The notes: generated by a model from the sequence alone, not told the origin. Positions 13,238 to 16,894 are shown, counted from the stretch's first letter. The stretch is 37,565 nucleotides of DNA from an uncultured euryarchaeote (GCA_937899865.1 CALBRH010000006.1:1-37565), one strand, 5' to 3'. Numbers and translations: made by a program.

Positions 13238-14734
13238 TTAAGATCTAACCCAATTATCCGGAAGATTATTGTCTTCATAGTCAAAATCATCTAGATGGAC
13301 AACGGTTAATGATAATTTTATTTCATCGGGAAATTTTGATTTGTTTAGAAATTTCTCAAATGATTGTAATAACTCCTTGAGTTCGCCGTTTCCATTTGCC
13401 ACAGTAATTACTTCCAAAGAATCTGGAATATTGTCCAAATCATCAAACTTTTCAATGAATTTACTATAACTTAAATCCATAATATCTTCAACCAATTTTG
13501 TTGTAACATCTTCTCCTGACCAAACTAAATTAGGAATTGGGCTTTCCATCCATGGACTACTAGCCTGTAATTTCACCATATTGTCAACCCACCAAGGACA
13601 TCTATTGAGGACTTTTTTTGCCAAAGACTTTCTTACCGCAATAAAATTATTTTCTTTGAAAAGCAGGGGTGATAGTTCTATCAAATCTCCGTGAATAATA
13701 TTCACAATATGAGGTTGATTTGTTTTGACATAAGACCTAATATTTTGGGGCTTCGTCAATAAGTGATCATTAATTTTAAGCCAGCCGAGGAATTTTTGAT
13801 AATATTCCAAGTCCCAAGTTTTCATTGCAGGAACCAAGTTTGAGAGGTTAACATGTGTGATATCATCTGTTAATTTTTGGATATAATTACAATTCCATAT
13901 GTCCCAAGTGTATGCATCAACATGTTCAAATTGATTTCTACCACTTTCAATTGCAGAATCAATTTGCTGTTTAGTTTGGGCAAACTCAGGTACTAAACCC
14001 CTCATCCACTTTTGGAAATCGGCTACATTGACCTCCTTACTCTCTCCATTATCACCAACAATGTACATACTTGCACTGTATGCTGTCAAGTCTGATGCTG
14101 AGTTCTCGCCCAACCACTCTAACTCTCCCGAATAACTAATATGACTACTCAATGATTGATAAAAATCTAGTAATTTATCTTCAGTTTCCTTGAAAGATAA
14201 TATTCTCTTTAAGTCATGCTTGTGGTCGAGAATAATCAAACCATCTTTCCTAACAAACTTAGATACATAGTCTAAGAGTGACTTTACTTGCTTTTTTCTG
14301 ATATCATCGCCAATATTTATCCAATCAATCCAATCAAGATACAATATATCTACTAACGGTATAGAATTTAGATATTCTTCTGCGTCTGCAGTCACTTGTA
14401 CTTGCCAATGTGGTTGTTTGCTATCACATATTCTGAAAACAGGATGGCCGTCAATGGTATCATTAATCCTCTGATACTTCATAAAATTACCAGTTGTTGA
14501 AACCATTCCAGGCCAAGTATCTGGAAAGTATGGATGCAAATCAATCACTAAATGTATGAATGGATGGTCGAATTCTTGAACAAAGCTCATACTAGCATGA
14601 TAATGATTACCAGCAGCAGGGTGTGCGATAACTAATGGTCTTGACTCATCTATTTTGAGATCGATACCAACGTTTAGGTCTTCATTAGAATGGATAAATG
14701 TCCCATATCTTTCTTTTTGATTTTTCATTGCCAT
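13238..14734 (-). CDS. Hypothetical protein; N-terminal class I SAM-methyltransferase-like region, C-terminal macrodomain-like region
   Basis: LVIAHPAAGN, LVIDLHP, VDILYLD, SKFVRKDGLIILD; IVNIIHGDL and ITVANGNGEL; GAGGTG SD, TGATG overlap with upstream gene. Confidence 0.6.
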   Translation of the reverse strand: MAMKNQKERYGTFIHSNEDLNVGIDLKIDESRPLVIAHPAAGNHYHASMSFVQEFDHPFIHLVIDLHPYFPDTWPGMVSTTGNFMKYQRINDTIDGHPVFRICDSKQPHWQVQVTADAEEYLNSIPLVDILYLDWIDWINIGDDIRKKQVKSLLDYVSKFVRKDGLIILDHKHDLKRILSFKETEDKLLDFYQSLSSHISYSGELEWLGENSASDLTAYSASMYIVGDNGESKEVNVADFQKWMRGLVPEFAQTKQQIDSAIESGRNQFEHVDAYTWDIWNCNYIQKLTDDITHVNLSNLVPAMKTWDLEYYQKFLGWLKINDHLLTKPQNIRSYVKTNQPHIVNIIHGDLIELSPLLFKENNFIAVRKSLAKKVLNRCPWWVDNMVKLQASSPWMESPIPNLVWSGEDVTTKLVEDIMDLSYSKFIEKFDDLDNIPDSLEVITVANGNGELKELLQSFEKFLNKSKFPDEIKLSLTVVHLDDFDYEDNNLPDNWVRS

Positions 14735-15273
14735 CACAAACACCTCTCATGACCCAAGGGGACTACTCTGAAGATTCTCTTAACTGGCCTATCCAATCTA
14801 GTATAATTCTGGACTTTTGATACTCCACCATAATTTGCCAGTTTTGCAGTATCATATATCATGTCCTTGTGCATAGTAACAATGTGAGCAGTACACAATT
14901 TACCATTTGAATCAATATCAAATGGAGGGTCTGTTGAATAAAAAGATACCAAAAATAAGTCTTTGAGTAGTGCTAATTCTTCAACATAATACTTCAATCT
15001 TCTAACATCTGTGTTACAATATGCTAATTGCAAACCAAACGGTTTCAAAGAATCAGACCAACTTTGCGGACATTGTGAATTAGTTACTGCTTTGAAGTGC
15101 TCAGGACTTGCATTAAATCCTAAACTTTCAACAATCATTGAAAGTGTTGTAGCAACACATGAAGGCCCAACTTGTTTCCTGTGTTGGATTTTTAGTCCGT
15201 TGAAATATGTGTCCTCATCACCTTTCCAAATCTTACAATTTTTATTAGGAACCCAATTAGCAATCATTGCCAT
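14734..15273 (-). CDS. Peptidase C39-like (papain-fold) protein
   Basis: Q-x5-C (RKQVGPSCVATTLSM), AHIV His, IYDT Asp; GGAGG SD. Confidence 0.65.
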   Translation of the reverse strand: MAMIANWVPNKNCKIWKGDEDTYFNGLKIQHRKQVGPSCVATTLSMIVESLGFNASPEHFKAVTNSQCPQSWSDSLKPFGLQLAYCNTDVRRLKYYVEELALLKDLFLVSFYSTDPPFDIDSNGKLCTAHIVTMHKDMIYDTAKLANYGGVSKVQNYTRLDRPVKRIFRVVPLGHERCL

Positions 15274-15476
15274 TCCTCCTTGAATTTGTTAGGATAATTT
15301 GATTTTTCACTCATTTTGATTTCTTTTTCATTTGATTGACATAATGGGCAACAGCATTCCACTTTTTCCCATTTTTTGTAATCATCTATCATCAATTTAG
15401 TATATTCAGTTTGAATATCTAAATAATCAACAAATTTTCTAATTATTTCATTTATTTTTATCCTATTTTCCTTCAT
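15264..15476 (-). CDS. 70-aa protein with CCCPLC motif
   Basis: GAGGTG SD overlapping upstream stop; overlaps next gene start. Confidence 0.65.
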   Translation of the reverse strand: MKENRIKINEIIRKFVDYLDIQTEYTKLMIDDYKKWEKVECCCPLCQSNEKEIKMSEKSNYPNKFKEEWQ

Positions 15477-15486
15477 TTTTTACACC

Positions 15487-16251
15487 TCACAAATACATCC
15501 AATCATCTGGCCTACCTCCAGGCCATTTCTCCTCAAACTCTTCTGCAAATTTTCTTCTATCGACTTCTTGCTGATAGATTATGTTCCAAACCTCTTCATC
15601 TTCAACAAGAAGTTGGATCATTAACAGTAATGATTCTGGAAATGTTTCTCCTTGTGGATTAATGTGTACATCTTGAAATTCCATATCTTGATATTTTGGC
15701 ATGTGTTTAGGAAAGCTAGAGAATCCAAAACCTGTTTTTTCTGAATTAGTCTCTATTTCCCAAGTTGCTACAGTTGCTTCTAAATTTGCAATATGGTTAC
15801 CTAATATGTGCTTATTCCTAGCCCCATTTCTGATGTTCCTTAATGCCGCGTAATGCTCATCCAAAGTATTGGGCGGCAGCCATCTATGGAATTCTAAACT
15901 AATATCGAACCTGAACCTTGAACCATGTTGTCCAATAACCGTGAAAGTATTTTCTTCGATTTCAATCGCATCTGTTTTAGAAATATATTGAGCCAATTTA
16001 AGCCAATCTTTCTTTAATTGTTCAGTTTCTTCATCTGTCAATATAGGTTTTTTATCCCATGATGAAGGAATGTAACCCAATGGTAACAAAATTAGTTTCA
16101 AATCACCTAATTCGTTTGGCCATTTAGTCCATTTACCTTTGACATTAGGATTGTTCTTGTTCCATGCTTCAATAATATGAAATTGAAATTTAGCAGAATC
16201 TATGTCTATATCCCAGTCGATTTCATCCCAGCCGTTAAATTCTCTACTCAT
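15487..16251 (-). CDS. Hypothetical Trp-rich acidic protein
   Basis: 254-aa ORF, ATGA overlap with the GNAT stop; no family recognised. Confidence 0.75.
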   Translation of the reverse strand: MSREFNGWDEIDWDIDIDSAKFQFHIIEAWNKNNPNVKGKWTKWPNELGDLKLILLPLGYIPSSWDKKPILTDEETEQLKKDWLKLAQYISKTDAIEIEENTFTVIGQHGSRFRFDISLEFHRWLPPNTLDEHYAALRNIRNGARNKHILGNHIANLEATVATWEIETNSEKTGFGFSSFPKHMPKYQDMEFQDVHINPQGETFPESLLLMIQLLVEDEEVWNIIYQQEVDRRKFAEEFEEKWPGGRPDDWMYL

Positions 16252-16682
16252 TCGAAAAACCTCCTTGTTGGAACTTTTCTATCCGAATGGCATACCTTGC
16301 ATGTAGTATTGATACAAGGCCATGGATAATCATTAGCAATAATGTCAATTTTTCCTCTTTCTTTCATTTTCTCCCAAAAGCCTCTACTACAATTCCAAGT
16401 ATCTACCCAAATAATGTAATTTGGGAAAGCCTTCCTAATATCTTCTACCATATTTGAACCATGACCTGATTGTCTTTTAGAGGGAAGATGGACTTTGAAA
16501 TTGCTAATTTCCACATAGTTTTCTTCAATGGTCACACAGCAATTTGACACTGGCATTCTGCCTTTGTAAATCCAGCAATTTTCTTTTCTAGGGTGTTCAC
16601 AAAATGGACCTATTCCGTTCATTGAAACGGCATCTTCGTCTATTTTGCACGCTTGCATTTTATTTTTTATTTTCATTTTCAT
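16248..16682 (-). CDS. GNAT-family acetyltransferase with Cys-rich termini (144 aa)
   Basis: Motif A KRQSGHGSNMV, motif B SRGFWEKM; AGGTGA SD; the ORF-track extension to 16772 is tRNA sequence. Confidence 0.75.
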   Translation of the reverse strand: MKMKIKNKMQACKIDEDAVSMNGIGPFCEHPRKENCWIYKGRMPVSNCCVTIEENYVEISNFKVHLPSKRQSGHGSNMVEDIRKAFPNYIIWVDTWNCSRGFWEKMKERGKIDIIANDYPWPCINTTCKVCHSDRKVPTRRFFE

Positions 16683-16696
16683 TTTATCACCTAAAT

Positions 16697-16771
16697 TGGT
16701 TGAGACACTGGGAATCGAACCCAGATCTGTAGGTCCGCAGCCTACTATGCTATCCATTACACCATGTCCCA
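16697..16771 (-). tRNA. tRNA-Arg(GCG), CCA encoded
   Basis: TGGGACA/TGTCTCA acceptor stem; D-arm GTGT-AATGGATA-GCAT; anticodon arm GTAGG-CTGCGGA-CCTAC; T-arm CTGGG-TTCGATT-CCCAG; ACCA end. Confidence 0.92.
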
Positions 16772-16867: not shown

Positions 16868-16894
16868 TGGTAACTATTTGACATGCAAATAGTC
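16868..16894 (-). other. 9-bp hairpin followed by ACCA (microhelix-like) or palindromic operator
   Basis: GACTATTTG-CATGT-CAAATAGTT-ACCA, 11 nt before tRNA-Arg(TCG). Confidence 0.5.

Follow-up and report, generated by a model that had tools for sequence, protein, structure and literature searches.

We analyzed a window of 37,565 nucleotides of DNA from an uncultured euryarchaeote (GCA_937899865.1 CALBRH010000006.1:1-37565), in which two tRNA-Arg genes are followed on the same strand by an open reading frame (ORF) for a 144-residue protein with a predicted GNAT acetyltransferase fold. Our account of this gene, to which we assign a probability of about 0.55, is that it encodes a minimal GNAT carried as an optional member of a mobile, tRNA-led cassette free of CGN arginine codons, that it is expressed from the tRNA precursor, and that its product acts on a macromolecular target of the pathway served by the cassette. 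The cassette is specific to Poseidoniales, the group of ocean archaea to which this DNA belongs; it is approximately 3.7 kb in length and consists of a CGN-rich leader ORF, the tRNAs, and the genes for the GNAT, p254, p70, the papain/C39-like peptidase p179, and p501 (Table 1).

The junction between the second tRNA and the GNAT gene leaves little space for independent expression signals. A first-pass annotation of this DNA had reported that the CCA of the tRNA is followed by ATTT, AGGTGA, TAAA, and the ATG, had argued that no room remained for a promoter, and had proposed that the mRNA arises from the tRNA precursor. The sequence features held up. The elements are found in that order on the minus strand, with the Shine-Dalgarno-like AGGTGA 4 nt past the CCA, and the gap of 14 nt between CCA and ATG has no space for an archaeal TATA/BRE, no terminator, and no run of five or more T. 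Nearby there is a single terminator-like site (17051-17038), which belongs to the end of the upstream DUF3817 gene. The CCA is genomically encoded in both tRNAs, because the Rfam model ends at the discriminator and the next three bases are CCA. When the region was folded, both cloverleaves formed and the A-rich start of the coding sequence remained open. The minimum-energy fold also paired the GNAT Shine-Dalgarno sequence with a GUUACC upstream of the first tRNA, but this pairing was rejected on account of its z-score (-1.4) and its lack of conservation in other loci. A sigma-70 promoter scan was set aside as irrelevant in an archaeon.

The same arrangement recurs among relatives of the GNAT. 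In each of the 18 related genome loci, a tRNA-Arg in the same orientation immediately precedes the ORF, and the adjacency is not fortuitous. An AGGTGA or GGAGG motif followed by N4-7 and an ATG lies 13–26 nt past the last tRNA in 14 of these loci, the remaining four having a longer spacer or a decayed second tRNA. In two loci (L007 and L010) the second tRNA has degenerated to a tRNA-like remnant that ARAGORN does not call, and extra short ORFs precede the GNAT. Because the GNAT is the first ORF after tRNA-Arg in 26 of 28 distinct GNAT-bearing loci, usually 13–26 nt downstream and with the same Shine-Dalgarno motif, it is likely to be co-transcribed with the upstream tRNAs. A GGTG or GGAGG motif precedes all five cassette genes as well as the leader ORF, making Shine-Dalgarno-led initiation on a polycistronic RNA plausible in this lineage. 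Thus a shared strand, a gap with neither promoter nor terminator, and a junction kept among relatives, here across genera, are all seen, as expected of a tRNA-mRNA unit. The simplest reading is that the GNAT mRNA would be a 3' extension of a leader-tRNA-tRNA-operon precursor, with no promoter of its own, and that RNase Z or a comparable enzyme, by cutting at the tRNA 3' end, would release an mRNA with its Shine-Dalgarno sequence a few nt from the 5' end.

Gene calls in this region require some caution. The 174-residue version of the ORF found in a mechanical ORF listing begins within the tRNA, and public gene calls of 169–241 residues (P0002, P0004-P0006, P0008, P0011, P0018, P0021, P0026, and P0042) have N-termini that are translated tRNA sequence. 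Database gene calls for GNAT relatives at 28–45% identity carry the same kind of N-terminal extension. These upstream-extended forms are annotation artefacts.

Both cassette tRNAs are divergent, surplus copies and move together with the cassette genes. The 2.0-Mb assembly contains 39 tRNA genes, most tRNA species being present in single copy, and a second, housekeeping gene is found for both tRNA-Arg(UCG), on contig C14, and tRNA-Arg(GCG), on contig C38. The housekeeping pair is 77 nt in length with 61–62% GC and G-C-rich acceptor stems; the cassette pair is 75 nt with 51–53% GC, shares an identical D-arm, and includes one tRNA with a U1-A72 pair. Where the first cassette tRNA was recovered in related loci, its anticodon was UCG in 8 of 17 and ACG in 9 of 17. 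tRNAs with A34 are very unusual in archaea and, to our knowledge, archaea do not make inosine-34; the ACG anticodon thus suggests relaxed or non-standard decoding constraints on the first cassette tRNA. Loci in which this tRNA carries ACG are L002, L003, L004, L006, L007, L009, L010, L013, L017, L018, and L032.

Comparison of genomes indicates that the cassette is mobile. The only genes common to related loci are those for the GNAT, p254, p70, p179, and p501, and the flanks are conserved in just 2 of 17 loci, both from close relatives. Five congeners have an empty site of 456–771 bp between the cupin and DUF3817 genes, compared to approximately 3.9 kb here, and in these congeners a cassette without the GNAT is found at another genomic location. 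Use of the tRNA as an integration site was rejected: there are no flanking att-like direct repeats and no integrase, and the tRNAs and leader move with the cassette to different sites. The GNAT profile matches 29 of 301 Poseidoniales species genomes and the p179 profile 78 of 301. Four architectures were found: tRNA-tRNA-GNAT-p254-p70-p179-p501, as in the window; tRNA(-tRNA)-p254(-p70)-p179-p501; tRNA-GNAT-p179-p501; and, in one genus, tRNA-p254-GNAT-p179-p501. The GNAT is therefore an optional accessory gene of the cassette. Since the GNAT-less cassettes retain the tRNAs, the leader, and the avoidance of CGN codons, both tRNA linkage and codon avoidance belong to the cassette rather than to the GNAT.

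In the GNAT-less cassettes, p254 fills the same Shine-Dalgarno-led slot 28–50 nt past the tRNA. Such an exchange would be expected if the GNAT acetylated small molecules or proteins and had no activity toward tRNA, its position reflecting a tRNA promoter that drives whichever cassette gene comes first. The best fold matches of the protein are small-molecule or protein GNATs, and its look-alikes by language model are clusters of short viral GNATs, both of which fit this explanation. The GNAT family was found, however, only inside tRNA-Arg-led cassettes (in the databases and the 301 genomes), and its gene is CGN-free like the core genes, arguing for a role in the same pathway; we consider an enzyme inactive toward tRNA decidedly unlikely.

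Avoidance of CGN codons extends over the whole cassette. None of the 42 Arg codons in the five cassette genes here is CGN, compared to 43% genome-wide, and this includes the GNAT gene (0 of 9). Over 17 loci, CGN accounts for 3 of 824 Arg codons in cassette genes as opposed to 613 of 1275 in flanking ORFs, and depletion of any other codon does not exceed about 1.5-fold. In 20 further cassettes sampled via p179, CGN makes up 18 of 612 Arg codons, and GNAT-less cassettes contain 0–2 CGN per approximately 38 Arg codons, compared to about 80% CGN in their flanks. Long ORFs with zero CGN number three in the genome, two of them in the cassette. The third, an ORF on contig C60 (64926-65690, plus strand; 0 of 12 CGN), was rejected as a second cassette; it is AlaX-like (AlaRS editing domain) and unrelated to the cassette, and its lack of CGN may be chance. 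In L026 (G012:C5, about 310.7–313.6 kb), a decayed cassette whose p179 is interrupted by TGA stops, CGN has returned to 7 of 42 Arg codons, and in L047, a lone p179 homologue without tRNAs, 7 of 11 are CGN. These natural controls show that active maintenance of the avoidance is confined to cassettes that are intact and led by tRNAs. Because the GNAT gene, like all the cassette genes, has no CGN codons, it could be translated while CGN decoding fails or is blocked, which is the state for which the cassette appears to be built. The cassette pathway would then either rescue failing CGN decoding or impose the block.

The leader region upstream of the tRNAs shows the opposite codon usage, the leader ORF having CGN at 4 of its 5 Arg codons (CGG, CGC, CGT, and CGT). 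A small ORF with 3–6 clustered CGN codons is present within the 100–200 nt upstream of the first tRNA in 18 of 18 related loci (L001-L018), with a peptide sequence that varies between clades; it resembles a codon-specific sensor. The hairpin that separates the leader ORF from the first tRNA is replaced in other clades by one of different sequence at the same position (e.g., TCAGCG...CGCTGA), and could belong to an attenuator or to a signal for processing. In addition, a helix of 7–9 bp, formed by complementarity between the 5' leader of the first tRNA and its 3' trailer, extends the acceptor stem, a feature also found in 23 other loci. This helix covaries by clade (AAACCA/TGGTTT, AAGCCA/TGGCTT, TTAGGCA/TGCCTAA, and ATCGTAA/TTACGAT), its duplex has a mean energy of -10.8 kcal/mol compared to -4.4 for shuffles, and it may serve as a processing stem.

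Table 1. Features of the cassette. Coordinates are positions in the whole window; all features lie on the minus strand.
Feature	Position	Strand	Remarks
Leader ORF, 19 residues	16921-16980	-	own GGTGA Shine-Dalgarno
Perfect 8-bp hairpin, ACTATTTG, loop CATGT, CAAATAGT	16873-16893	-	between leader ORF and first tRNA
Leader/trailer helix flanking tRNA-Arg(UCG)	arms 16868-16862 and 16781-16775	-	
tRNA-Arg(UCG), spare (first tRNA)	16856-16782	-	encoded CCA; ARAGORN and Rfam, 62.7 bits
tRNA-Arg(GCG), spare (second tRNA)	16771-16697	-	U1-A72 pair, discriminator A73, CCA at 16699-16697; ARAGORN and Rfam, 62.6 bits
AGGTGA, Shine-Dalgarno-like	16692-16687	-	4 nt past CCA, 4 nt ahead of ATG; motif recurs in related loci
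GNAT-fold ORF, 144 residues	16682-16248	-	ATG 16682-16680, stop 16250-16248
p254, orphan	15487-16251	-	start overlaps GNAT stop by 4 nt (ATGA)
p70, small Cys-containing protein	15264-15476	-	variably present in cassettes
p179, papain/C39-like cysteine peptidase	14734-15273	-	core cassette marker
p501, orphan	13238-14743	-	last cassette gene

The GNAT protein belongs to a small family confined to Poseidoniales. A large-database search recovered 23 relatives, all from marine metagenomes, and scanning 1.8 billion representatives exhaustively with HMMER yielded only 21. The 18 genome loci that encode a relative are all from Poseidoniales or from 'Methanobacteriota/Euryarchaeota' metagenome-assembled genomes of that group. 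Poseidoniales are among the most abundant archaea of the surface ocean, and we know of no member that has been cultured. A search of IMG/VR recovered nothing related to the GNAT and thus gives no indication of a viral origin. The protein is basic, with a pI of approximately 9. Its R70-x-x-G73-x-G75 (motif A, the CoA pyrophosphate loop) is kept in 22 of 23 family members, and it probably binds acyl-coenzyme A (acyl-CoA). The C-terminal C-x4-C-x2-C-H cluster described in the first-pass annotation is present as C123-x4-C128-x2-C131-H132; 21 of 23 relatives retain it, and the remaining pair are truncated or frameshifted. This Cys3-His tail probably binds zinc. Other conserved blocks in the alignment are I-W-V-D-T-W-N-C, F-W-x-K-M, and W-P-C-x-N-T-T-C-x-x-C-H. 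Residues D94 and C98 are invariant and follow the β5 strand of the model (residues 90–93).

Structural predictions support assignment of the protein to the GNAT fold. An AlphaFold2 model based on the family alignment has an overall pLDDT (predicted local distance difference test) of 79, exceeding 90 for residues 20–120, with the tail at low confidence. It contains a mixed β-sheet core and the β4-α3-β5-α4 arrangement of GNATs in a single domain of 144 residues, and lacks the N-terminal α1-α2 substrate arms; as modeled, this is a trimmed, minimal GNAT fold with an intact CoA-pyrophosphate loop. The Foldseek search that had been proposed as a check returned a GNAT at every match, with RibT at the top (E 4.6e-4). 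Using VIA, a Foldseek-independent scan of 48,161 chains, the top matches had Z-scores of 8.0–8.4 over 77–98 aligned residues and were the ICL2 C-terminal domain, AcrVA5, Rv1916, PanZ, and AAC(3)-XIa. The toxin TacT2 (7ak7; Z 6.7, rank 44) and the aminoacyl-tRNA-dependent synthase Sbb17 (Z 6.7, rank 46) came lower, differences in Z of less than about 1–2 being weak evidence. The family profile aligns with RibT (E 0.01) across β4, motif A, α3, β5, and α4, and Acetyltransf_7 gives weak matches in 8 of 23 relatives, the best with an E-value of 4e-4 and below curated cut-offs. The identity of the protein as a GNAT is thus upheld by fold and by these weak matches in relatives, but not by Pfam or NCBIfam for the protein of the window.

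Several observations weigh against our account. The window protein has no match in Pfam or NCBIfam, and fold Z-scores of approximately 8 are middling. Two loci of family f3 (L034 and L035), in which the GNAT lies behind a 77-nt tRNA-Arg(GCG), are not CGN-free. At the motif-B position occupied by Tyr in many GNATs, the protein has Trp, which aligns with Phe in RibT; it could therefore be a poor catalyst or a PanZ-like CoA-sensing subunit. This last possibility can be stated as an alternative, in which a non-catalytic regulatory subunit that senses acetyl-CoA, as PanZ does for PanD, gates another cassette protein. PanZ and RibT are among the top matches, the α1-α2 substrate arms are missing from the model along with the motif-B Tyr, and the 4-nt stop/start overlap with p254, present in most loci, suggests coupled synthesis. 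Nothing supports a complex of the GNAT with p254, however, and the invariant D94 and C98 could still be catalytic; we regard a purely regulatory subunit as very improbable. Under our preferred account the product would most likely acetylate a macromolecular target of the CGN-decoding pathway, either a protein or an aminoacyl-tRNA. It would tune the cassette rather than form its core, as an accessory acyl-CoA-dependent enzyme or CoA-binding subunit.

The proximity to tRNA genes raises the question of whether tRNA is itself the target. One explanation is that the GNAT acetylates the α-amine of Arg on Arg-tRNA(NCG) by the chemistry of TacT and AtaT and blocks CGN decoding, with the cassette tRNAs as substrate, decoy, or antidote and the CGN-free genes remaining translatable. 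The restriction of the gene to cassettes led by CGN-reading tRNA-Arg, its place as first ORF in nearly all of them, the basic character of the protein, and a Cys/His tail that could hold RNA are consistent with this activity; CGN-free coding would render the cassette immune to such a block, and TacT2 is among the GNAT matches. On the other hand, the retention of tRNAs, leader, and CGN avoidance in GNAT-less cassettes means that the GNAT is not their reason, TacT2 falls below RibT, PanZ, AcrVA5, and the AAC enzymes, the motif-B Tyr is replaced, and no RHH/DUF1778 antitoxin is encoded among the neighboring proteins. We view Arg-tRNA acetylation as possible but unlikely. A functional tie to CGN-decoding tRNA-Arg is strongly supported at the level of the cassette, by the spare tRNAs and the CGN avoidance. 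The earlier proposal that the GNAT is the component directed at tRNA is unsupported, because GNAT-less cassettes retain these features and because p254 stands between tRNA and GNAT in one genus. Residence in the cassette ties the GNAT to tRNA biology, with direct action on tRNA a possibility.

A comparison can be made with the type II GNAT toxins TacT, AtaT, KacT, and ItaT (PMC4942678, PMC7595197, PMC9177977). Like the cassette GNAT, these are small, basic proteins of GNAT fold that are tied genetically to specific tRNAs, and codon- or isoacceptor-specific inhibition of translation would fit a CGN-free cassette. The cassette GNAT differs in being shorter, in having no N-terminal helices, no significant sequence membership, and no RHH/DUF1778 antitoxin gene, in its extra Cys3-His tail, and in its setting, an archaeal five-gene cassette that bears tRNAs and for which it is dispensable. 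No match to RHH/DUF1778 or to a PADLOC model was found in the four downstream proteins or the upstream neighbor. The cassette GNAT is not a member of the TacT-type toxin-antitoxin systems, and such a pair is supported neither by its neighbors nor by the structural ranking, in which RibT, PanZ, AcrVA5, the ICL2 C-terminal domain, and aminoglycoside acetyltransferases are the best matches.

A second tRNA-based possibility is that the protein takes Arg-tRNA as an arginyl donor, in the manner of the aminoacyl-tRNA-dependent transferases Fem, L/F-transferase, and ATE1. A GNAT-like fold beside dedicated spare tRNA-Arg genes and the match to the aminoacyl-tRNA-dependent peptide synthase Sbb17 point in this direction, but the Sbb17 match is no better than those to generic GNATs. 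The protein is a single small domain with no second GNAT-like lobe or added substrate domain, and it retains the R-x-x-G-x-G motif that binds CoA pyrophosphate. These characters disfavor the use of Arg-tRNA as donor that had been raised initially, and we give it hardly any credence.

The matches that rank highest also have limits as guides to function. RibT (5xxr), PanZ (4cry/4crz), and AcrVA5 (6iuf) are the best structural and profile matches and share the same trimmed core and motif A, but their identity to the cassette GNAT is 16–20% and they lack the WPC-x4-C-x2-CH tail and a tRNA-linked context. The target of PanZ is PanD and that of AcrVA5 is Cas12a; these give no guide to the target of the cassette GNAT.

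The cassette itself can be compared to two kinds of known arrangement. tRNA-mRNA units are represented by the thrU-tyrU-glyT-thrT-tufB operon of E. coli and by mitochondrial tRNA punctuation. Dicistronic tRNA-mRNA transcripts are also found in plants (PMC8166872). The cassette shares with these the same-strand tRNA and protein genes, the promoter-less gap, and the expected release of mRNA by tRNA-end processing; it differs in that its tRNAs are spare, its downstream genes avoid the codons those tRNAs read, and it is a mobile accessory unit of archaea. The second kind is attenuation by leader peptides, as in trpL and hisL, together with the theory of selective charging of isoacceptors reportedly developed by Elf et al. 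in 2003. Here the likeness lies in a short upstream ORF enriched in the sensed codons and downstream genes written in robust synonymous codons. In contrast to attenuation systems, however, the controlled unit begins with tRNA genes, the setting is archaeal, avoidance is near-absolute, and the terminator/antiterminator pair has no demonstrated counterpart.

Neither the cassette nor the GNAT family was described in the literature that we searched. GNAT folds and tRNA-mRNA co-transcripts are known kinds; the novelty lies in the orphan mini-GNAT with its Cys3-His tail, in its being found strictly within an archaeal cassette that is led by tRNAs and free of CGN, and in the logic of that cassette, which combines three things not previously seen together, namely spare tRNAs, a leader rich in their codons, and genes from which those codons have been eliminated. 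For biochemistry, the GNAT offers the most tractable entry, because it is the sole component with a recognizable enzymatic fold. A more specific reading, which we treat as speculative and unlikely to hold in full, is that the GNAT modifies Arg-tRNA(NCG), or the spare tRNAs, in a codon-family-specific manner, within a cassette that senses and toggles CGN decoding while its own genes are immune. If this were true, the cassette would be a tRNA-encoded, codon-selective translational switch or defense module with no described counterpart. Were the GNAT to act on Arg-tRNA, enzymes that acetylate tRNA would be known from archaea and in a codon-selective setting as well. Should it not do so, the locus would still provide a clean natural example of an archaeal mRNA born from a tRNA precursor.

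The proteins p254, p179, and p501 belong to Poseidoniales-only orphan families, and searches of all five cassette proteins against Pfam, NCBIfam, PADLOC, and PHROGs found no significant family. The GTG at 14743 probably precedes the true start of p501 by a few codons. The p501 profile gave only a weak glycine-N-methyltransferase-like stretch against PDB sequences (E 0.4), on which basis a methyltransferase-macrodomain fusion is unsupported. The p254 model has a pLDDT of 71, with no Foldseek match, VIA Z-scores of 3.5 or less, no usable Atlas match, and nothing in a profile search of PDB sequences; weak matches (Z 2.4–3.2) fell recurrently on RWD, UBC, and UEV (E2-like) domains and are too weak for assignment. 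A profile search of PDB sequences likewise returned nothing for p179, in which Q34, C39, H130, and D141 are invariant, with a spacing typical of papain/C39-like cysteine peptidases. The C-terminal motif of p254, K-W-P-x-G-R-P-D-D-W-M-Y-L, is near-invariant.

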